DNA from: Bacillota bacterium
GTDB taxonomy: Bacteria > Bacillota > UBA994 > UBA5500
DNA length: 64,000 nt
Reading direction: 5' to 3'
Assembly (NCBI GenBank): GCA_023436245.1
Contig: JAEZJZ010000030.1
Span: 91 to 64,090, forward strand
Of this stretch, positions 8,803 to 44,500 are shown in pieces. The translations under genes were made by a program, and so were the position numbers. A model generated the notes under the pieces. It made no database searches, had not been told where the DNA came from, and saw only the letters and a list, made by a program, of their open reading frames with translations. How positions within the stretch are numbered: the first letter of the stretch is position 1; each line of letters starts with the position of its first letter.

Positions 8803-10536
8803 CTACTCGTCAAACTGGAAGCTGACCACGTCTTCAGTGGTGACAACCACCAGCCGCTCACCTACCCAGAGGGCCTGTAGGATCTCAGTGCCCCGCAACT
8901 TGAGCAACGTACACTCGCGACCTTGCTGATCTATCAGCACGCCGTGCACCAGGCTATCGGAGGCATCGGGCAGAGTTGAGCCCTTGAAGCGGCTGATGAA
9001 CAGCAACTTGCGGGCAGAATGATAGGCCAGTGCCTGGTCCTGCTGCACCTGCCAAGCTGGCTTCCTGGTCACCTGCTGCAAATCGTCGTGCGCAAAACTA
9101 TAATACCAAACGTTTGCGGGGAAGACCTGAGCGTAGCCGTCGCTATGATCGCGGTCAGAGAGATACACCCCCTGCCCGTCTGACGTGAATAGACCGGAAT
9201 TGAACACCGTCTGTCGTTTCAGGCTGATGCTGCCGCCGGATAGATTGTAGAAGGATAGTGTCTGAGCCTCCTGAGGCGCCGTCAGCCGGCAATGGCCAAG
9301 TGCAATCAAACCCTCCGCGATCCAGACGATCTGTTCATGCCGAATGTGCGCCTCCTGGGGCAGCCCGCCCAGTCCCCGTCTCTCTCCGATGTTGAGATCG
9401 AACAGGAACAGTGATTCGTACACTGGGTCCATCGGGCCGGGCTCTGCTTCAGTTGCTTCGACATACAACAGTTGCTTTCGGTTCGGGGAAAGGGCAAATG
9501 CGCCGATCGAGTATTTCGGACTGGCCTCGGCCAGTTGCGCTTCCTGGCGCGAAGCAAGATCGAAGACGAAGACCCGGTTCTGCCCTGCTGGATGCGACAT
9601 GTAATAGAGCTGGCCACCATCCCAGTCGGCCACGAAACCGGTGTTGCCGCTGAGTTGCACTGTCTCGCCCTGAACCCAGAGAATGGACTTGGCCGCGTCA
9701 CCACGCGAACTGACAAACAGATTGCCCTCAGCCCAGATCAGGTCGTCTCGACCGACATCAGCCAGTTCGCGGGTCTTGCCTGAGGCAAGCTCGTGCGCAT
9801 AGACCTTGTTGCCCGAATGGTAGGCCACAGACCCGGCATCATAGGCCCAAATGCGCTTAGTCACTAAGCCCGGCGCCAAAGGTGCGGATGAATAACTTCC
9901 GGGCGAAAAGGTATCCAGATGGCGATCTGTCAGCTCAACATAGTCCTGCCGTAAGTCCAGCAGGTAGATGGTGGCAGGGATGTCGTCTGCCTTGGCGGAA
10001 AAGACGAGTGTAAAGTGGTCGATCCATCCGAGCAACTCCAATTGCTCCAGCCCGGATAGCACCACCAACCCCTGACCGAGAGACGTACTCACTAGCAGGT
10101 CAAACTCGTTCGCACTGGAGCGCCTGTAGGCAACCAGGCGATTCCCCTCACTGTATCGCAAGTTATCGCCGGGGACACTGACGAACTCGTTCGGCTGCTG
10201 ATCCGATTGAGTCCGCAACCTTTCGTTCTCCACAGCCACCGAAGCTCCCCAATCCTCATAGCCCGGGTTTCGCTCCAACAGATGCTCCCCGTCGAGGCTT
10301 GTGCTCCAAAGCAACTGATCGCTCACATACTGCAGCTTCTGTGGCTCAACCATAGCATAGTCACTCACCGCAGCTTCCGGAAAAACTGCCAGTACCTCTC
10401 TACCCTGCAACTTAACAGGCTCCAATGGGATATGCTTCTTGTCTCCCGCCTGCGAGCCTACGCCGGGGGTGCTATGCCTACACCCAGCGAGCAGGACAAG
10501 CGAAGCCAACAGTAATGCACTAAATCTCTTCCTCAT
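8803..10536 (-). CDS. lipoprotein with TolB/PD40-like beta-propeller repeats
   Basis: Signal peptide plus lipobox LLAGC; Trp/Tyr/Gly-rich repeat pattern; 4-nt overlap with the upstream GNAT gene. Confidence 0.5.
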   Translation of the reverse strand: MRKRFSALLLASLVLLAGCRHSTPGVGSQAGDKKHIPLEPVKLQGREVLAVFPEAAVSDYAMVEPQKLQYVSDQLLWSTSLDGEHLLERNPGYEDWGASVAVENERLRTQSDQQPNEFVSVPGDNLRYSEGNRLVAYRRSSANEFDLLVSTSLGQGLVVLSGLEQLELLGWIDHFTLVFSAKADDIPATIYLLDLRQDYVELTDRHLDTFSPGSYSSAPLAPGLVTKRIWAYDAGSVAYHSGNKVYAHELASGKTRELADVGRDDLIWAEGNLFVSSRGDAAKSILWVQGETVQLSGNTGFVADWDGGQLYYMSHPAGQNRVFVFDLASRQEAQLAEASPKYSIGAFALSPNRKQLLYVEATEAEPGPMDPVYESLFLFDLNIGERRGLGGLPQEAHIRHEQIVWIAEGLIALGHCRLTAPQEAQTLSFYNLSGGSISLKRQTVFNSGLFTSDGQGVYLSDRDHSDGYAQVFPANVWYYSFAHDDLQQVTRKPAWQVQQDQALAYHSARKLLFISRFKGSTLPDASDSLVHGVLIDQQGRECTLLKLRGTEILQALWVGERLVVVTTEDVVSFQFDE

Positions 10537-11072
10537 TGCTTTACCTCCTGCGCATCGTCCAAGACGCCGCCAGTACCCCTCAGTGCTCCCCTTGGCCCGA
10601 TCTTGAGCTCGGGCGTCACGCGGCCCTCAGCTTCCGTGAAGGTCGCACCCCATCGTCTCCACAGCGCCAACGACGGTTCGTTGCCCACCTGGATACTGCA
10701 ACCGAGCGTCTCGATTCCCTGCTCGCTGGCTGCCTCGATTAGCAGAGAGAACATCTGCGTCGCGTAGCCCTTCCCCCAGTGCTCGCTGGCCAGCCAGTAA
10801 CCCGTACGGGCGCTCTTTCGCACCAGATCGATATCGCAGAGAGAAATGCTGCCGATCGCCTCCCCCTGCAGGAGTACGGCATAGCAGACGGCCCTCCGAC
10901 GCTTCGCCCACCCTTGGCAGGTGGCATAGTAATCGGCGGGAAGCACTTCCCGGATGGGCTGGAGCGAGTTTCTGGCGTGTAGCAGTTCGTCTGTGCTCAG
11001 AATACGCGCCAGAGTCTGACTGTGATCCAGCGTCAGCTCGGCGATCGTGATTACGTCAAACCCAGCGGTCAT
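10533..11072 (-). CDS. GNAT family N-acetyltransferase (RimJ/RimL-like)
   Basis: Acetyl-CoA-binding motif WGKGYATQMF; about 180 aa. Confidence 0.7.
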   Translation of the reverse strand: MTAGFDVITIAELTLDHSQTLARILSTDELLHARNSLQPIREVLPADYYATCQGWAKRRRAVCYAVLLQGEAIGSISLCDIDLVRKSARTGYWLASEHWGKGYATQMFSLLIEAASEQGIETLGCSIQVGNEPSLALWRRWGATFTEAEGRVTPELKIGPRGALRGTGGVLDDAQEVKQ

Positions 11073-11302
11073 GTTTAGCCACCTCTCCACACATATCTAA
11101 CACCGTGAGATTTCCAGTCCAGTATTCCACCGAGATCCATCCTTTTCCTGCCTGTGTATTGATTAGGCATGACCCCTTTCTCCGAAGCCGCCCTCCAGGT
11201 GCGGCATGGAGTAAACTGCCTGCGGGAAGGCGGAGGTATGCGCCGCGGCTTTGGAGAAATCACAGTGTGGACCTCTCATTCAAGTAGAAAGGCTGGTGCG
11301 GC

Positions 11303-13136: not shown

Positions 13137-13901
13137 TCAGGGCTTAGCTACCCGGTTAGTCAGTGCGCCTAGGCCCTCGATCTCAATGGTCACCTCATCG
13201 CCGACCTGCATCGGACCGATCCCCGAGGGGGTGCCGGTAAGGATCACATCGCCGGGATAGAGCGTCATCACCTGCGAGACGAAGCTAACCATGTAGGGAA
13301 TCGAGAAGATAACATCTGAAGTACGACCGTCCTGCTTCAACTCGCCGTTCAGGAAAGTCCTAAGAGCTAGATCGCCGGCGTCTACTCCGGTGACGATGCT
13401 GGGCCCGAGGGGGCAAAAGGTGTCAAACGACTTGGCTCTGCTCCACTGAATGTCCTTGGACTGCAGGTCACGAGCGGTGACGTCGTTGGCGATGGTGTAG
13501 CCGAAGATGTATTGCGCGGCGTCCGCTTCTGCAACCTGATGGCACTTCCTCCCGATCACGATGGCAAACTCGCCTTCGTAATCGAGCTGGCCAACGGTCG
13601 GCCAGTAGACGATGTCACCGCCGGGCGGAAGCAATGCAGTGGTCGGTTTGAGAAAGATCACCGGCTCCGCCGGTAACTTCATGCCGAGTTCCAAGGCGTG
13701 CTTACGGTAGTTCAAACCGACGCAGACGACCTTGCTCGGCTGGCAGGGGGTAAGTAACTGGACCTCGCTCAAGGGATACGTTTGCTCGGTCGGCTGGTGC
13801 TCGCCGAAGATGTCGCCCTGAAGCACGGCGACCTGGTCATCTGACAGCAGCCCGAAGTGGGTCTGGCCATTCACCGCAAAGCGGACATAATGGTTCGTCA
13901 T
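13137..13901 (-). CDS. fumarylacetoacetate hydrolase (FAH) family protein (HpcE/2-keto-4-pentenoate hydratase-like)
   Basis: MTNHYVRFAVNGQ...; the ATG at 13899-13901 is preceded by GGAGGAG at 8 nt; the track ORF is 78 aa longer only because the upstream tandem repeat has no stop in this frame. Confidence 0.8.
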   Translation of the reverse strand: MTNHYVRFAVNGQTHFGLLSDDQVAVLQGDIFGEHQPTEQTYPLSEVQLLTPCQPSKVVCVGLNYRKHALELGMKLPAEPVIFLKPTTALLPPGGDIVYWPTVGQLDYEGEFAIVIGRKCHQVAEADAAQYIFGYTIANDVTARDLQSKDIQWSRAKSFDTFCPLGPSIVTGVDAGDLALRTFLNGELKQDGRTSDVIFSIPYMVSFVSQVMTLYPGDVILTGTPSGIGPMQVGDEVTIEIEGLGALTNRVAKP

Positions 13902-13909
13902 ACAATCAA

Positions 13910-14107
13910 CTCCTCCAGCAGTCTGCAAGACTGCGATCTCAATAAAGCGATTCTTGCTCGTCAAGAATCGGCTTGTACCTCCAGCAGTCTGCAAGACTGC
14001 GATCTCAATAAAGTGATTCTTGCTTGCCCAGAATCGGCTTGTACCTCCAGCAGTCTGCAAGACTGCGATCTCAATAAAGCGATTCTTGCTCGTCAAGAAT
14101 CGGCTTG
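13910..14107. repeat. 3 tandem copies of a 66-bp unit immediately 5' of the FAH gene
   Basis: Unit cctccagcagtctgcaagactgcgatctcaataaagcgattcttgctcgtcaagaatcggcttgta. Copies at 13910-13975, 13976-14041 (diverged in one arm) and 14042-14107. Each unit holds two hairpins (GATTCTTG-n5-CAAGAATC and GCAGTCT-tgc-AGACTGC) and the SD-like CCTCCAGCAG. Confidence 0.85.
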
Positions 14108-14141
14108 TACTAGAGGTTTGTCGCAAAGCGGTCATTTTGTA

Positions 14142-14169
14142 GGGGCGCCATTCATGGCGCCCCTACAAA
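14142..14169. repeat. 28-nt perfect palindrome GTAGGGGCGCCAT-tc-ATGGCGCCCCTAC (REP-like)
   Basis: 13-bp arms with a 2-nt centre; related copy GGGCGCCATGCATGGCGCCCCTAC at 62327-62351. Confidence 0.8.
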
Positions 14170-15460: not shown

Positions 15461-16084
15461 CTATTCCCGCGCTGATTGACAGAGACCGAATACGTTGCCG
15501 CTACAGAGCAAGGGCATTTGCCGGCGGATTTCCTCCACCGGCCAGTTCCACCACTGCAGCTGCAATAGACTGGCGATCTCCTCGTCGCTGAAGCGCTTGC
15601 GAATCACCCTGGCCGGATTACCGGCCACAATGGCATAGGGCTCAACATCCTTGGTAACTAGGGCCCGGGTGCCGATCACGGCGCCGTCTCCGACATGAAC
15701 GCCGGGCATAATCATTGCCTCAGCGCCGATCCAGACGTCATTGCCGACGACGGTGTTACCCTTGCTGATGTAGCCATCCCGGGTTTCACCCCAATTGTCT
15801 TCCGGAAAACCATGGAACGGATAGGTGGAGACCCAGTCGAAGCGATGCCCTTGGTTCCCGGACATGATGAAAATCGCCCCGGTACCGATGGAGCAGAATC
15901 GACCGATGATCAATTTGTCCTCGTTTGCGTTTTCCGGGTTCAGGTACCAGACATTCTCCTCGAAGTGCTTGCCGTGATAGTAACCCGAGTAATAGCTGTA
16001 ATCCCCCACCATGATATGGGGGTTGGTAATGTGATCGCGAATCAGATAGCCCTGGAATGGACTATCAAATGGGTTTTGCCTCAT
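15461..16084 (-). CDS. vat: Vat-family streptogramin A O-acetyltransferase (xenobiotic hexapeptide acyltransferase)
   Basis: [64 protein letters not shown] and WWNWP match Vat(A)/Vat(D) almost position for position. Start taken as MRQNPF (16082-16084); an upstream M at 16156 would overlap the DUF3795 stop by 4 nt. Confidence 0.8.
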
Positions 16085-16152
16085 TGCTGTCACTATCCTT
16101 CCCTGGCCTGTTCTCGCCCACAAGTTCCTAATGGCAGTGATCAGTGGGCTAC

Positions 16153-16515
16153 TCACGACTGGACCTTGCTGCCCAGCGCCTGTCTCCGGGCGCGCAGCCG
16201 TTGCACGGCAACTTGATGGTTCCTGTCGCCGTCATCCTCAAACGTGATGACTTTCTCACAGGGAAATGCGTCGCAGAGAGAGCAATCCTCTTGGCGTCGC
16301 TCGCTGGAGCAACACTGCCTGATCTGGCAGTCGCCCGACCAGAGCAGTTCTGCGGCCCCGCGGCAGCCCTGGCAGCGAAACCAGGCAGGCAACGCCTGCT
16401 CATGGCCGGCGTTACGCCAGCGCTCGGCCAACTTGGCTGCTTCAGCGGGTGAGTTGGCGGCGCGATAGATGGAACATTCAGCACAATCAATACCGCAAGG
16501 CGCGATCATGGACAT
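16153..16515 (-). CDS. DUF3795 family Cys-rich protein
   Basis: CGIDCAEC...C..C...C Cys-rich pattern, 120 aa. Confidence 0.55.
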
Positions 16516-17247: not shown

Positions 17248-17428
17248 TGGTAAGCTGATCTATTACTACCGATGCAAACATCTCTGATCCGTCTTCGCCA
17301 AACAGACCTTCTTAACCTTCGTTCATGCTGGAGAGCAAGGAGCAATCGCGACCTACTCTGTCAGCTTAGCTTGGGCTGGTGTTATGCACCCGGCTCACTC
17401 CTGCATAGGATGTGAAGGGGGTGATAGC

Positions 17429-18376
17429 ATGATTGGGGTTCTTTGCTCCGATGGGAAACGGCATGACTATGCCAGTGCGTTGCAAACCGGGCATGCCCCT
17501 GCAGGCGGCCGTACCCTGCCGCTGCTCTTCTTCTCGGCGACTGACCATGACAGCAAGAGCGGTCTAGTCGACGGCCTGGCGGCAGGCGCACCTGCCAAGG
17601 TTGTGCGGGCAGAGCTACCGCGCGTAATCCTCAATCTTTCGGTGCAGACCAACAGCTCTGGCCGACGAGCGCTGAAGGCCCTGCGGCTGAACCCAAATGT
17701 GCACTTGATCAACCCTGCCAATCGCTTCAACCAATGGACCGTACAGCAGATGCTAGCTTCCTCCCTCAACTTGGCAAACAACCAGCTGCCGATGCAGGTC
17801 TCGGACCAGCGGGAGCTGTATGCTCAGGTCATCCGCGCCCAAGGTCTACTCTTCACCCCAATTCAGAGTACCAGCCCCTGGCGGCTGCATTACCTCCCGG
17901 ACAGTCGGAAGGCGGCCCTGCTGGGAGCGCCAGGCCAAAGCGAGTGGCTTGACCAAATGCTGCTCAGGATCTCCTTTCACCAGCGTTGGCTGTCCAGCGA
18001 GGTCCCAGAGTTGCTCTGTACGGGCAAGCGACCCCTGGTTGCTCGTATCTACCTGCAGCGTGGCATGGGCGGTCTCTGGACCGTGCTCGGCAAGAGCCAG
18101 TTCAATGGGCAGCCCAGCGCGGGAGACTTGGCTGGCCCGGTTTCCACCCTGGCTCTGCAAGCCATTCATACGTTGTCCACATACCTGCCGACGTTGGGGC
18201 TTGCCTTCGTGGACTTCGTCTTCAGCATCCAAGGAGAGCCGTTCCTGCTGCATGCAGGGGGCTGGGACTACCGCCTGTTGCTTGCTTCCGAACTACATCA
18301 GCCACTGCTGGACAATCTGTTCAACTACGCCTATTGGTTGCTCAGCCATCAGGAGGTAGCGCCGGATGTGGATTAG
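17429..18376 (+). CDS. YheC/YheD-like protein, divergent and probably catalytically degenerate (no clear ExN)
   Basis: GAAGGGGGG RBS then ATG at 17429; VHLINPANRFNQWTVQQML region resembles the YheC/D pre-ATP-grasp domain; the stop overlaps the next start (ATGTGGATTAG). Confidence 0.45.
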   Translation: MIGVLCSDGKRHDYASALQTGHAPAGGRTLPLLFFSATDHDSKSGLVDGLAAGAPAKVVRAELPRVILNLSVQTNSSGRRALKALRLNPNVHLINPANRFNQWTVQQMLASSLNLANNQLPMQVSDQRELYAQVIRAQGLLFTPIQSTSPWRLHYLPDSRKAALLGAPGQSEWLDQMLLRISFHQRWLSSEVPELLCTGKRPLVARIYLQRGMGGLWTVLGKSQFNGQPSAGDLAGPVSTLALQAIHTLSTYLPTLGLAFVDFVFSIQGEPFLLHAGGWDYRLLLASELHQPLLDNLFNYAYWLLSHQEVAPDVD

Positions 18377-19730
18377 GCTGCACAGAATCTCGATGGAACA
18401 GACGGCGATCGGGCTCCCGAGCCCTTTATGTGCAGAGGTGGGGCCTTCCGCCACGCTCACGGTCGGCTGCCGGACGCAGGAAGTGACCATCCAGCAGACA
18501 GACAACCAACTGACCGGGAGCGGGGTGGCTTTGGAACAACCGCTGCAAGTTGATGTGTCCTCCGCTTTGCTGGACAACCTGTCCTTGCCCGATGGGCTAT
18601 GCTACCGACTGAGGTACGCTCGTAACCGCCTGCTGCTTGGCCCAATCATCGGACTATTGCTTGGCCGAGACACGCACCGCTACAGCCCGGCCTTCATGCA
18701 GAAGTTCAGTGATCGGCTGGGCGTCTATCAGCAGGTGGGTGGGCTAATTTGCGCCTTCTCCGCGGAAGCCATCGACTTCACCAGTCGAATGGCCGCCGGG
18801 CTGTATTACGATCCGGAGGAGGATAACTGGCGATATGGACAGTTCCCGCTGCCGGGAGTGATCTATCGTCGCAATTTCCATACAGGCCAGCAGGTGATCG
18901 ATAGACTGGTCGGCCTAACTGAGGGACGTCTGTTCAACTCCTATCGCTTTGACAAGGCAGAGCTCTACGCTTTTCTGGCCGGGGATCAGACTCTGCGGCA
19001 ATACCTGCCTCCCTGGGACGTAGCCAGCGACCCCGTCCAAGTGTCCGTCTTCCTGGACCGACACCAGAAAGCAGTGCTAAAGCCCATGGATTTGTCCCGA
19101 GGCCGCGGTATTTGCATCCTCGAGAAGGCAGACGACTGTGTGCTGGTGCACGATTACCGAGCGCATCTGCCAGTGAGGCGCGAGCTGGCAGGCGACCTAG
19201 GATTCCGGCAGTGGCTTGACCAGAACCCCGGTCTGTTCAATCGTTACCTAATGCAGGGCTATGTTCAGTTGGCCACCATTGCTGGGGCGCACTACGATGT
19301 GCGGTTGGTGATGCAGAAGAGGCTCTCGCTGAAGTGGGAGTGCTCCGGCATCGAATGCCGGGTGGGGCAAAGCAACAGCCTGCTGACCAACATCTCGCGC
19401 GGTGGCTACGCCCTGACCCTGCCGAAGGCTCTGGCGCTGTCCTTCCCGGGGCAGACCAACAACCCGCTGCTCGCACGTCAGTTGGTTGACGTGGCCTTGG
19501 GGATTTGCCGCAGGCTAGATCAACTGGGGGCGCACTTCGCCGAGCTGGGGCTGGACCTGGCAGTAGATGTTCACCGCCGGGTCTGGATTATCGAGGCCAA
19601 TGTGTTTCCTAGCTTCAAGGGCTTCAAGCGCACCAGCCAGCTCACATACCTTGCCATCCGCCATGCGCCTTTGCTTTATGCGCTCCATCTGAGCGGGCTG
19701 GACCAACCGGAAGGGGGTGAGTGGAGTTGA
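18366..19730 (+). CDS. YheC/YheD family ATP-grasp protein
   Basis: LLGPIIGLL N-terminus; ATP-grasp motifs KPMDLSRGRGICIL, MQGYVQ, YDVRLVMQK, IIEANVFPS. Confidence 0.7.
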   Translation: MWIRLHRISMEQTAIGLPSPLCAEVGPSATLTVGCRTQEVTIQQTDNQLTGSGVALEQPLQVDVSSALLDNLSLPDGLCYRLRYARNRLLLGPIIGLLLGRDTHRYSPAFMQKFSDRLGVYQQVGGLICAFSAEAIDFTSRMAAGLYYDPEEDNWRYGQFPLPGVIYRRNFHTGQQVIDRLVGLTEGRLFNSYRFDKAELYAFLAGDQTLRQYLPPWDVASDPVQVSVFLDRHQKAVLKPMDLSRGRGICILEKADDCVLVHDYRAHLPVRRELAGDLGFRQWLDQNPGLFNRYLMQGYVQLATIAGAHYDVRLVMQKRLSLKWECSGIECRVGQSNSLLTNISRGGYALTLPKALALSFPGQTNNPLLARQLVDVALGICRRLDQLGAHFAELGLDLAVDVHRRVWIIEANVFPSFKGFKRTSQLTYLAIRHAPLLYALHLSGLDQPEGGEWS

Positions 19731-21067
19731 CTGATCACTTGCGGCTGAAAGTGTTCAGCTCGCGCCGGCCACTGCTGGTCATCGAAACGAAGTTGGGCAA
19801 GCGACATGGCCTCGGCTCCGGCAGCATCTACAGAATCAGCTTCGGTACACACTCCACCAAGGCAAGACTCAGACTCGACAAGAGTCAGCCAGCCTCTGTA
19901 TTGGCCGTTTCTGAACACACGCAGGGCGAGCTTGTGCTCAGCGCTGCCCCCGCTTACCTACTGCGGCGGATAGGGAAGGAGATCCGGCTTGGTCCCCTGA
20001 TCGGAATATTATATTGCCGGCGTAGGGATCGCCTCACCAGCCGTCGTCTGCGCAGGCTGCAGAGCTACATACGGGAATACCCCAGGTTGCGCTGCAGCAT
20101 AGTTGTCTTCTCGTTGGACCAAATCAACCGCAGGAAGCTAACAGTGAACGGTTTTCTGTACAATCCGACCAGTGACAGCTGGGATGCCGGCACATACCCA
20201 TTCCCGGCCGCCATGTACCGGAGAATAGGGGTACCGCCATCCTGGCGGGATTTCTTCCACCAGACGATCGGGCGAGCCTGGTTCAATGACTATTACTGGG
20301 ACAAATTCGAACTGCATCAACGCCTCTCCACCCTGCCAGCCATCAGGGACTACCTGCCTGAGACTCGCCTGGCATTGACCGTTGAGGACGTGCAGTGCCT
20401 GTTGGCCAAACATGGCAGGGTATTTCTGAAACCAGTGGCTGGGATGCGCGGCAGGGGGGCAGTTCAACTCGCCCAGTCAGGCGCAGGGGTAAGCGTTCGT
20501 CGTGCGGATATGGCAGGCTCCATGCTGCTTGCCAGACAGGAGGAAGTCACCCGGTTCTTGCTTGAGCAGGTAATCGGCACTGGCTACTTGGTGCAGCAGT
20601 ATCTGCCGCTACTCAAGTGGCAGGATTGTGTGATAGATCTGCGCGTGCTGATGCAGAAAGAGGATGATTGCAGGTGGCACTGCCAGGGCATGGTCGTGCG
20701 GCAGGGCATGCAGGGCAGCATAGTCAGCAACATCTCTCGCCGGGGAGTAGCGTGGCAGGTCGATCTGTTCCTCCGGGATTGCCTAAGCCTCACTGAACAG
20801 GCAGCGCAGGAATGGCGCCAGCAAGCCGAACAGGTAGCCGGGCGCGTCTGCGCAGCGATCGACACCCTGGGCTGGAACAATGGAACCATTGGACTTGACC
20901 TTGGGCTGGATCAATCGGGGCGCTGGTGGTTAATTGAGGCAAACAACCGCGATCCCGACCCCACCATTGCCTTGGACGCCAACGATAGTCAGCTCTACAG
21001 GCGCCTGAAGCTGGCGCCGCTGCTCTACGCCAAAGGGTTGGCCGGATTTGGGCCTGACCACGAGTGA
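19721..21067 (+). CDS. YheC/YheD family ATP-grasp protein (paralog)
   Basis: GTG start overlapping the upstream stop by 10 nt; RLGPLIGIL, KPVAGMRGRGAVQL, VQQYLPL, IDLRVLMQK, LIEANNRDP. Confidence 0.7.
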   Translation: MELTDHLRLKVFSSRRPLLVIETKLGKRHGLGSGSIYRISFGTHSTKARLRLDKSQPASVLAVSEHTQGELVLSAAPAYLLRRIGKEIRLGPLIGILYCRRRDRLTSRRLRRLQSYIREYPRLRCSIVVFSLDQINRRKLTVNGFLYNPTSDSWDAGTYPFPAAMYRRIGVPPSWRDFFHQTIGRAWFNDYYWDKFELHQRLSTLPAIRDYLPETRLALTVEDVQCLLAKHGRVFLKPVAGMRGRGAVQLAQSGAGVSVRRADMAGSMLLARQEEVTRFLLEQVIGTGYLVQQYLPLLKWQDCVIDLRVLMQKEDDCRWHCQGMVVRQGMQGSIVSNISRRGVAWQVDLFLRDCLSLTEQAAQEWRQQAEQVAGRVCAAIDTLGWNNGTIGLDLGLDQSGRWWLIEANNRDPDPTIALDANDSQLYRRLKLAPLLYAKGLAGFGPDHE

Positions 21068-21188
21068 GCGGAAGCGATCTATTCGCATGCTCAGTTGTCA
21101 TCATTTCCATTGGACTGACGTAATAGTATGGTGACAGCATAAGGTCACGTAGTAGCCACAACCATTCTGAGAGGGGTGTGAAAGTACC

Positions 21189-21890
21189 GTGCAGCAGCTC
21201 CTGTTCCCACTGAATGAGCTTTCGGCAGCGAGTAAGTTCTACCGTTCCATCTCCACATCCCCTGCAGGAGGAACAGCCTTCTGCCAGCTCGCAGAAGGGC
21301 TGGCAGAAATCAGCCTGACCGCGCAAAACCTGCGCCGGTTAGAGCCGTTACCTGAAAACCAACTGGCATATGTCTCAGGACCTGCCTCCTATAGCCAGTA
21401 CCACGTGTGGTTGACCGCAGCGGACCACGAACCGCTGTACATAGGCGCCTTCAACGTGCCGAACTACGGCCTGGGAACCTTCTATGTTGTCGTTGATCCA
21501 GAGAACGTCAATGGCTGCGGGCTGACGCTGGGCAAGTTCGCCTGGCTGATAGTCACCGCTAGCCCAGGGGTCAGACACAATCTTTGGCCGGGCGAGTTGG
21601 ATGCGGGAGTACTCTACAGCCGCCTCACGGATACGGGAGCCTCTCCCTTCTGCTTGTTTGACAGATCCAGCAAGAAGCTGGAGCTGGACGACGATCTGGA
21701 TGACGACGCCGACTTTGATGAGGACAGCTTCAACGACGATCCTCCGGATGAAGACCGCTTCGAGGACATGGAGTCAGAAGAAGAGAGCCCGGAGGACGGC
21801 GAGGAACCGCTCTGGGAGGAACTGACTGACAACGAGGCGAAACCCTCGACCCGAAGGCGTCGCGGAAAACGCGGCAGGAGTTCGCGCTGA
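21189..21890 (+). CDS. hypothetical protein with extreme poly-acidic C-terminal tail ending in an Arg-rich patch
   Basis: Last ~75 aa: LELDDDLDDDADFDEDSFNDDPPDEDRFEDMESEEESPEDGEEPLWEELTDNEAKPSTRRRRGKRGRSSR; follows the ATP-grasp triplet after a 120-nt gap. Confidence 0.5.
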   Translation: MQQLLFPLNELSAASKFYRSISTSPAGGTAFCQLAEGLAEISLTAQNLRRLEPLPENQLAYVSGPASYSQYHVWLTAADHEPLYIGAFNVPNYGLGTFYVVVDPENVNGCGLTLGKFAWLIVTASPGVRHNLWPGELDAGVLYSRLTDTGASPFCLFDRSSKKLELDDDLDDDADFDEDSFNDDPPDEDRFEDMESEEESPEDGEEPLWEELTDNEAKPSTRRRRGKRGRSSR

Positions 21891-22100
21891 ACAACAGACA
21901 GCCGACTGGCGAGACTGTTCAGCTTGCGCTCTGCAGAGGCTCGGCATGCCGAGCCAATCCCGGCACCACAGGCATGCTGGGGGAGCTACGGTGAAGAGAA
22001 AGGCGACTTTCGAACACCGTCGCTTGCGTGCACCGAGCAGGCAGCACGGCAAAGTGACGCAGTGAGTCAACTTCAGCTACCCTAGTTCTGTACCTCAAGA

Positions 22101-22132
22101 GGCCGCTCGGACGTGATGCCGAACGGCCTCTT
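22101..22132. terminator. bidirectional hairpin between convergent genes
   Basis: GAGGCCGCTCGG-n-CCGAACGGCCTC stem. Confidence 0.35.
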
Positions 22133-22158
22133 CATGATCTACACGGCAGCTCACGCAG

Positions 22159-42747: not shown

Positions 42748-43599
42748 TCAGTCAGCGAGCTGCAGGCGCCAGGCATCATGCTTGGACACAAACGTCCAGC
42801 CCATGCTCTCGTACAGCTGACGCGCGGCTGCGTTCCAACTGACGACATGCAGGGTGACGGGATCGATCCCTCTCGTCAGCATCAGATTGGTGCAGTAAGC
42901 CATGATGCGGCGGCCATAGCCCTTACGCCTCTCCCTGGTGTCTACAGTCACAGTGTCAATCTCTGTACCCTCCAGTTCAGCCATGCCGATCAGGCGATCG
43001 CCATCGAAGAAAAGAAGGTTATTGATCGGGTCCAATCCCAGCAGTTTCTGCCGCGTTGCCGGGTCATTCCTAACCTCGTTGGGATAGACGAGATTCGGCT
43101 GGATATCCATGGCCTGGCGCATGGGGAAGAAACCCTCATTGATCAAGCGAATCCAATCCTCGTAGTCGGCATCCTGATATCCGCGCACCACCAAGTCTGG
43201 ATCAGGAAGCGCGGGGCCGGAGTAATGCATCAACTCCAGGCCATACCACGGCTGGAAGCCGTGCCGCTTTAGCCAAGCCTGGCCAGCTTGGTCCGTGGCG
43301 GGGCAGAAGCAGGAGATCTGACGAACATCGCTTGGCCTGTTGGCCAAGAGTTCTGCCCAAAGCTGGCTGCCGACGCCCTGGCGCCTCTCGCTTGGGGCGA
43401 CCAACATCCCGCAAGAGTAGAACCCTGGGCGACGACCAGGGGTGAGGGTGCCAAGGGCAAGCAGATCATCTCCCCGCAGGGCGACTAGGCGCTGCCCTCG
43501 CTCCAGCAGCCGCACCTGCTCGTCTTCCGGCATCCCAGTGTGCTGCAGTAAGGAAAGAACGACCGACCGATCTGCTTCTGCGAATTCCCTAATCAACAA
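42748..43599 (-). CDS. tandem double-GNAT N-acetyltransferase (MshD-like architecture)
   Basis: Two GNAT acetyl-CoA motifs (RRQGVGSQL and RRKGYGRRIM) in 283 aa. Confidence 0.65.
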   Translation of the reverse strand: MLIREFAEADRSVVLSLLQHTGMPEDEQVRLLERGQRLVALRGDDLLALGTLTPGRRPGFYSCGMLVAPSERRQGVGSQLWAELLANRPSDVRQISCFCPATDQAGQAWLKRHGFQPWYGLELMHYSGPALPDPDLVVRGYQDADYEDWIRLINEGFFPMRQAMDIQPNLVYPNEVRNDPATRQKLLGLDPINNLLFFDGDRLIGMAELEGTEIDTVTVDTRERRKGYGRRIMAYCTNLMLTRGIDPVTLHVVSWNAAARQLYESMGWTFVSKHDAWRLQLAD

Positions 43600-44500
43600 T
43601 TTCCATCTTCCTCCTCGCTATTCAACTGAAGTGCGTATGTTGTGGAGCGGCGCCAGGGCACAAAGCCAGCGCGGTGGTAAATCGAGAGCGCACGCTCGTT
43701 CTCCACGTTCACGGCCAAATGGATGTTCCGATGACCTCGTGCTGCCAGCGTTCGTACGCCGAGAGCCAGCAGAGAACTCCCCAGGCCGCTACGCCGGTAT
43801 TCCGGCAGCACCCCCAGGTAAGAGATCTCCGCCTCCTGCCCATACTCAGCGCAGGTGCAGAAGCCGACTAGGGTGCGCTCAAGAAAGGCCAGCAACCAGA
43901 GTTCCGGGGGAAACTCACTCTGCGCTACCGCTTGGTCCAGTTCCCGCCGGCTGATCGGTCGCGCAAAGATGCTATTATGGGCAGCCAGCATCGGCTCGAT
44001 GTCGGCTTCTCCGCCGTAGGACCGAATCTCTATGCCGGGCACAAGCTGGGGTGCCGGGAGCAGTTCGGGCAGCCGGCCATACTGCAGTACATGGAAGTAG
44101 GTGATCGGTTGCATGTGCAGACTGGTTACCAACTGTTCCAGGCCTTGTACACTGTGCCGGACCGGTACGAAGAACGTAAATGGGCGACCCGCCCTGACCT
44201 GTTGGGCGCGCTGCATCGCCCTTTGCACCAGCGCCGTGCCCACTCCCTGCCGCCGAGAACCAGGATGATTCCGCAGCAACCAACCCTCGTCGATTCCGCA
44301 TCTCCCCACTCCAGGCGGGCGTAGCCAACCAGCTGATCTGACTGAAAGGCCAGTTGGATGTCCTCTGGGTCGGTGCTGGCGACGAGCAGCGAGAGTGATT
44401 CGCGGGAAGTCCCTAGGTTGGCCCGATCCACCTGATCGGCAGCATTGATCAGTTGACAGAGACTATCCAGGTACTGTGGCGCATATGGCCTGATCTGCAT
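43593..44500 (-). pseudogene. paralogous double-GNAT acetyltransferase interrupted by a frameshift
   Basis: Two overlapping ORFs (44126-44500 and 43593-44309) in different frames; joined they give ...GYARLEWGDA|GIDEGWLLRNHPGSRRQGVGTAL..., colinear with the neighbouring paralog; shift lies within about 44270-44300. Confidence 0.5.

Follow-up and report, generated by a model that had tools for sequence, protein, structure and literature searches.

YheC and YheD of Bacillus subtilis are described as ATP-binding spore-coat proteins encoded in the same operon (PMC7725329), and they have likewise been reported as coat proteins in a second study (bioRxiv 10.1101/2022.02.25.481979). In the literature searched, we found no biochemical or functional study of the YheC/D family, nor a substrate, a product or a structure for any member. 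Enzymes of the ATP-grasp superfamily generally make amide bonds by way of an acyl-phosphate. Here we analyzed three consecutive YheC/D-type ATP-grasp genes, g1, g2 and g3 (hereafter the trio), and the gene that follows them, g4, which encodes a protein with an acidic tail. They are found in a 64,000-nt stretch of DNA (hereafter the window) from a Bacillota bacterium (GTDB lineage Bacteria; Bacillota; UBA994; UBA5500; GenBank assembly GCA_023436245.1, contig JAEZJZ010000030.1, positions 91 to 64,090 of the forward strand). The four open reading frames (ORFs) all lie on the + strand, where an earlier sequence-only reading of the window had placed them, and identical g1–g4 proteins are also encoded on the metagenome scaffold ENA ERZ28596075 (LEMO22-1, 68-kb). 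We put the probability at roughly 0.58 that the trio encodes a heteromeric YheC/D amide ligase module whose substrate is encoded elsewhere, and that g4 is an independent orphan gene beside it.

The second gene of the trio, g2 (18366–19730), encodes a full-length YheC/D ATP-grasp protein of 454 aa composed of an N-terminal domain of ~90 aa and a catalytic core. The third gene, g3 (19721–21067), encodes a second full-length YheC/D ATP-grasp protein, of 448 aa, whose start, judging from the spacing to the ribosome-binding site (RBS) and from the ortholog at the related locus L003, is more likely the TTG at 19727. Both proteins matched PF14398 (ATPgrasp_YheCD; cut-off 26.8 bits), g2 with an E value of 7.6e-56 (189.6 bits) and g3 with 1.6e-58 (198.4 bits), and they share 31% identity over 411 columns. 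The catalytic residues, K239-P240, R245-G246, Q297, D311/R313, D397 and E410/N412 in g2 numbering, are invariant or nearly so among 10 g2/g3 orthologs; as judged from this alignment, the ATP-grasp catalytic set is complete in both proteins. Secondary matches of g2 and g3 to TTL, GSH-S_ATP, ATPgrasp_ST, glutathione synthase and rimK_fam were short and, except for TTL, below the family cut-offs. The ~90-aa N-terminal domain, encoded at 18366–18650 in g2 and at 19727–20005 in g3, is carried by every full-length YheC/D protein of the trios in the window and at the related loci L003, L004, L005 and L018. It contains two L-P...L...G / F-G-x-R-like half-motifs and has no Pfam match, and its resemblance to the swapped-hairpin domains of AbrB, SpoVT and MazE is weak (hhalign probability 27%). 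A sequence search of the PDB with the g2/g3 profile found no YheC/D structure.

The first gene, g1 (17429–18376), starts with an ATG that is preceded by the RBS GAAGGGGG, and encodes a protein of 315 aa with no Pfam or NCBIfam match. Because direct BLASTP comparison of g1 with g2 and g3 was not significant, a profile–profile comparison was needed. With hhalign, a six-sequence g1 profile matched the g2/g3 profile with a probability of 98.4% (E 7.4e-15) over 300 columns, in a colinear alignment of g1 residues 1–305 with YheC/D residues 93–443; a g1 profile of four sequences had given 87.9% before the sequences from L017 and L018 were added. Moreover, the protein in the g1 position at L018 matched PF14398 directly (E 4.1e-16, 59.5 bits). 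The ~90 N-terminal residues found in g2 and g3 are missing from g1, and six of nine catalytic positions are lost in the profile alignment (K239 to T, R245 to S, Q297 to S, D311 to V, E410 to H and N412 to G), with LLHAG in place of IIEAN, while R313, Q317 and D397 are retained. The six sequences of the g1 family share 27 invariant columns, including NP.NR..Q, R206, Q210 and D262, at identities down to 20–24%. The g1 counterparts at L016–L018 are equally degenerate, with LQVRG replacing IEAN, and this shared state points to g1 as a conserved pseudo-enzyme, not a fresh wreck. On the strength of these alignments, g1 is a true but degenerate YheC/D paralog, predicted to be catalytically dead. An AlphaFold2 (AF2) model of g1 built on a three-sequence alignment had a predicted local distance difference test (pLDDT) score of 45.8 and was unusable, and a PDB sequence search with the g1 profile returned nothing informative.

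Proteins of the g1 type are rare, being found in three clusters of a large collection, in three JGI metagenome contigs and in one GTDB genome, an already known metagenome-assembled genome (MAG) that was the only match when genome contigs were scanned with the g1 profile. Every g1-type gene is followed by a g2-type gene, and by a g3-type gene as well on the contigs that extend far enough, with stops and starts that overlap or abut. This order, in which a short, presumably dead paralog is followed by two full-length paralogs with active-type motifs, was found in three lineages (the window with L003, L004 with L005, and L016–L018) and is conserved down to 24% g1 identity. The closest relative, L003, has ~60% identity and carries g1-g2-g3 and then g4, as in the window. 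At the other loci, the gene after the trio encodes a GNAT protein (L004), a CotF-like protein after a 400-nt gap (L005) or a fourth YheC/D paralog (L018, 3942–4240), the last of which overlaps the preceding stop with its start; tandem arrays in some lineages thus reach four members or more. Neither a g4 homolog nor any other acidic-tailed protein was found at L004, L005 or L018.

In the window, g1 and g2 overlap by 11 nt (ATGTGGATTAG at 18366–18376), with AGGAGG upstream of the g2 start, and g2 and g3 overlap by 10 nt if g3 starts at GTG 19721 or by 4 nt (TTGA) if it starts at TTG 19727. A promoter-like bipartite motif, GTTATGCAC, 14 nt, CATAGGATG, lies upstream of the trio (17381–17412, + strand). 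Its two blocks recur upstream of the trios of L004 (GTTATCAC-N15-CATATGATG) and L005 (GTTATCAC-N15-CATAGGATG) with a different spacer sequence, giving the combined motif GTTAT(G)CAC-N14/15-CATAkGATG for the window, L004 and L005. We take the CATA-type -10 of this motif to resemble mother-cell sporulation sigma promoters. When sigma-E, -K, -F and -G were considered by eye for the upstream motifs, spacing and -10 matches were ambiguous, and none was assigned. A scan for sigma-70 promoters and terminators stayed at background level, with no sigma-70-like site on the + strand and nothing useful between the genes.

These results bear out what the sequence-only reading had said of the trio, namely that genes 2 and 3 carry all ATP-grasp motifs and that gene 1 looks degenerate and lacks the ExN motif. 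It had also described overlapping start and stop codons; the overlaps at 18366 and between g2 and g3 stand, but the GTG start at 19721 gives way to the likelier TTG at 19727. The co-expression that it drew from these overlaps is supported for the trio as a unit by the gene order and the overlapping or abutting genes in three lineages. The fourth gene, g4, is separated from g3 by 121 nt and is therefore not translationally coupled.

In the reading that we favor, g1-g2-g3 would constitute a conserved, translationally coupled YheC/D ATP-grasp module. Within it, g2 and g3 would be two catalytically competent ligase subunits, each with the extra N-terminal domain, and the shorter, dead g1 would most likely join them in a hetero-oligomer, in a structural or regulatory role; such a hetero-complex is proposed because of the translational coupling. 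Since acyl-phosphate chemistry is general for the ATP-grasp superfamily, g2 and g3 may be expected to convert a carboxylate to an acyl-phosphate at the expense of ATP and then to join it to an amine; that the two active subunits differ suggests two ligations, either distinct or successive. The substrate would be the carboxylate of a peptide or protein whose gene lies elsewhere, and the setting is probably sporulation. This setting is proposed by analogy with the B. subtilis YheC/YheD coat proteins, and from the CotF-like neighbor at L005 and the CATA-type motifs upstream of the trio and g4.

The downstream gene g4 (21189–21890) encodes a protein of 233 aa that comprises a predicted β-sandwich (residues 1 to ~150/155), a disordered acidic tail (165–221) and a basic C-terminus (222–233, RRRRGKRGRSSR). 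Asp and Glu make up 30 of the 57 tail residues (53%), in good agreement with the earlier description of about 60 residues that are more than 50% acidic. Of the 209 open frames that reach 100 codons in the window, no other contains such a stretch, and the only repeat in the DNA under the tail is a 12-nt unit in ~2 copies. Searches of Pfam, NCBIfam and PDB sequences gave no match to g4. Its AF2 model, based on an 11-sequence alignment, is an eight-stranded Greek-key β-sandwich with pLDDT of 80–92 in most strands and below 50 in the tail. In a Foldseek search of this model against the PDB, the top ~37 matches were all Cu/Zn superoxide dismutases (SODs), although the matches were weak (best E 2.7e-3, identity 7–12%), and the target-normalised TM-score reached 0.70 against a loop-deleted monomeric SOD1. 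No His stands in the invariant or near-invariant columns of the 11-sequence family alignment, so g4 has no SOD metal site. The modelled g4 domain weakly resembles an SOD-type Greek-key barrel minus that site.

The g4 family is small. When the g4 domain was run exhaustively against 1.84 billion representatives with HMMER, eight matches emerged, of which six were genuine (~six clusters at 50% identity), and a g4 profile search of a 5.8-billion-cluster collection recovered 11 proteins. Two weak HMMER matches, P0011 and P0012, are repeat proteins similar to a 566-aa protein of DUF11-like repeats that is encoded directly upstream of the trio at L017 (95–1795) and has a helical C-terminus (…QAITDIIESIALQEAALSHILNAEGEKMQ…). 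The closest g4 relative, P0002 at L003, is 61% identical and directly follows the trio there. The four more distant homologs with an assignable genomic position (P0007, P0014, P0008 and P0016; ~40% identity) occur at nine loci (L006–L014) in two kinds of context, and no YheC/D gene was found within 8 kb of them. They are free-standing, with MarR, a LuxR/GerE-type regulator, MatE, MCP and M20/M28 peptidase genes in their flanks.

All full-length members of the g4 family have an acidic C-terminal tail, which is ~50–57 aa long in the two trio-linked copies versus ~25–30 aa in the distant members. The standalone homologs (P0007, P0010 and P0013–P0018) share a conserved hydrophobic-I-(D/E)-E terminus, preceded by a short acidic stretch; this terminus may be a short linear motif for binding. 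The trio-linked copies end differently, with RRRRGKRGRSSR (...RSSR) in the window and TPSKPHP at L003, and the basic terminus is found only in the window. Upstream of the four distant homologs there is a common block, GCAC-N17-(T)GCATAAGACATAGTAGTGA or GCAC-N17-TGCATAAGACATAGTAGTGA. Part of it, GCATAAG and GTAGT, is preserved in the g3–g4 gap of the window, where a promoter-like motif (21118–21146, + strand) consists of AC, 18 nt and CATAAGGTC and extends to 21155 when GTAGT is included. Because this shared block is partly kept, we argue that g4 carries its own promoter, and the motif suggests that transcription of g4 starts separately.

The sequence-only reading had proposed the acidic-tail protein as a substrate or scaffold of the trio, a proposal that it tied to co-occurrence of the acidic-tail gene with yheC/D genes in other Bacillota and regarded as refuted if the two were never linked elsewhere. 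The linkage was found only in the window and at L003, and was absent from L004, L005 and L018 and from the surroundings of the g4 homologs at L006–L014, so the outcome is largely the one that it had named as refuting. Furthermore, the window is broadly syntenic with L004 and L005, with which it shares an M42 peptidase, a ~570-aa protein without Pfam match, GNATs, Zip and β-lactamase; g4 thus sits in a slot filled by other genes in related genomes. According to the favored reading, g4 would be a separate transcription unit that landed downstream of the trio in the common ancestor with the L003 organism, and its position is probably a lineage-specific rearrangement, not a conserved enzyme–substrate pair.

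Several observations weigh against the reading of an independent ligase module beside an unrelated g4. The trio is known from just three lineages, which are not fully independent given the synteny of the window with L004 and L005. A simple scan revealed no terminator-like site between g3 and g4, so read-through co-transcription is possible. In addition, L003 also keeps g4 directly after the trio, and since the longest tails are found in precisely these two copies, a lineage-specific link between g4 and the trio is possible. Finally, Pfam scans recognized no sporulation genes in the window.

Among the alternatives, the one that survives best, although we consider it unlikely, is that the trio produces a small free peptide or a metabolite, as L-amino-acid ligases or glutathione synthetase do, or modifies a ribosomal precursor peptide as in graspetide pathways, and does not act on a protein. 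The weak secondary matches to glutathione synthetase ATP-grasp domains would fit this, two different active subunits would suit a stepwise peptide assembly, and the surroundings are rich in peptidases and GNATs. However, a search of the region upstream of g1 and of the g3–g4 gap gave no credible small precursor-peptide ORF with an RBS, and across the lineages the trio has no conserved partner gene for transport, tailoring or biosynthesis. The characterised members of the family are, moreover, spore-coat-associated (PMC7725329).

It is less probable still, at long odds, that g4 is a lineage-specific substrate or scaffold of the trio, with the ligases adding Glu or another residue to the Asp/Glu of its tail in a TTLL-like manner, or docking on it. 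The adjacency kept at L003 at ~60% identity, the expansion of the tail in exactly the two trio-linked copies and the lack of a detected terminator between g3 and g4 speak for this possibility, but the linkage is absent from the four distant g4 lineages and from the two other trio lineages, and g4 has its own conserved upstream motif. The strongly basic character of g3 (net charge +19) also speaks for it; however, the g3 orthologs are equally basic (+13 to +18) with or without an adjacent g4. Acidic tails occur across the whole g4 family, and we take the hydrophobic-I-(D/E)-E end of the standalone members to be reminiscent of the Glu-rich ends of RimK/TTL substrates, yet the trio-linked copies lack a terminal EE (RSSR and KPHP). 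The trio proteins also fall outside the RimK and TTL families: the match to TIGR00768 (rimK_fam) scored 12.1 bits against a cut-off of 143.4, and that of g2 to PF03133 (TTL), at 20.7 bits against 20.1, covered only 35 of the 292 profile positions, a shared Mg-site motif. A bolder variant, to which we give slightly less credence again, is that the whole g4 family is a dedicated tail substrate whose conserved hydrophobic-I-(D/E)-E terminus is, in most lineages, extended in trans by YheC/D-type enzymes with genes elsewhere, and that in the window lineage the gene moved to the enzymes and the tail expanded. If true, this would provide the first substrate and chemistry for the YheC/D spore-coat ligases, and a bacterial counterpart of the glutamylation of tubulin and S6, carried out by a hetero-complex with a pseudo-enzyme subunit.

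The least credible alternative, that g1 is a decaying functionless duplicate, g2 and g3 act independently and the overlaps are incidental packing, would account for the lost catalytic residues, the missing direct Pfam match and the poor AF2 model of g1, but an intact ORF of similar length persists in the same position in three lineages at identities down to 20–24%, which argues that g1 is not a relic, and the 27 invariant columns and the degenerate state itself are kept, the latter at L016–L018.

The neighbors of the trio and g4 are metabolic genes of an anaerobe-like Bacillota, encoding GrpB, DUF3795, an amidohydrolase, FtsH, HGD-D/BcrAD, rubrerythrin and AFOR. The GC content is ~58% throughout the region, and no Rfam element was found in the 16.5–23 kb segment of the window. 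Between the convergent g4 and amidohydrolase genes lies a GC-rich hairpin, AAGAGGCCGCTCGGACGTGATGCCGAACGGCCTCTT (22098–22133), which is probably a bidirectional terminator and was overlooked by the simple terminator scan. Upstream of the trio, between the FAA-hydrolase and M24 peptidase genes, three tandem 66-nt units (94–100% identical) with internal hairpins (13912–14110) are followed by a perfect 16-nt palindrome with a 2-nt spacer (14136–14169); the longest-ORF call at 13137–14135 runs through the 66-nt repeats and thereby acquires a spurious repeated N-terminus. Acyltransferase and peptidase genes are numerous in the window: two neighboring, overlapping GNAT acetyltransferase genes occupy 42748–44309 (- strand), and there are more GNATs at 10533–11090 and a hexapeptide acetyltransferase at 15461–16156. 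A 577-aa protein without Pfam match is encoded at 8803–10536 (- strand), and proteins of comparable size without Pfam match are found near the trios of L004 (562 aa) and L005 (567 aa), adjoining M28 and M42 peptidases. These three proteins, whose likeness is one of size and position, may be part of a conserved chromosomal neighborhood.

YheC/YheD-type ATP-grasp proteins occur widely among spore-forming Bacillota, where they are counted among the components of the coat. The locus described here does not provide the substrate that the sequence-only reading had proposed, but it gives a recurring three-gene architecture, a conserved dead paralog plus two putatively active ligases that each carry the additional N-terminal domain, and thus a concrete unit for co-expression and for biochemical and structural work. 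The finding that g4 is not a conserved partner of the trio should check the spread of a tempting but probably false analogy with tubulin and RimK, and g4 itself, whose small orphan family shares a conserved acidic motif at the C-terminus, may merit separate study.

Compared with known systems, the trio differs from graspetide and other ATP-grasp pathways for ribosomally synthesized and post-translationally modified peptides (RiPPs) in that no precursor-peptide gene was found adjacent to it. The N-terminal domain of g4, modelled as a Greek-key β-sandwich, may be similar to Cu/Zn SOD in fold, as the weak Foldseek matches suggest, but the g4 family has no conserved Cu/Zn His ligands and the identity is only 7–12%. 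With RimK, TTL and TTLL, the trio shares the ATP-grasp fold and the Mg-site motif (TTLL6 matched at E 8e-3 in the PDB sequence search), and in the window an acidic-tailed protein gene adjoins it. Different from these ligases, the trio proteins do not belong to the RimK or TTL families, the acidic-tail gene is no conserved partner, and the trio-linked tails have no Glu end. By their profiles, g2 and g3 belong to YheC/D, a known but uncharacterised family, of which g1 is a divergent, predicted inactive member. Like yheC-yheD of B. subtilis, g2 and g3 are adjacent PF14398 paralogs, apparently in one operon, with intact ATP-grasp residues. Different from the B. subtilis pair, the host is an uncultured Bacillota MAG of 58% GC with anaerobe-type neighboring genes, and the set comprises three genes instead of two, the first of which encodes a putative conserved pseudo-enzyme without the N-terminal domain.

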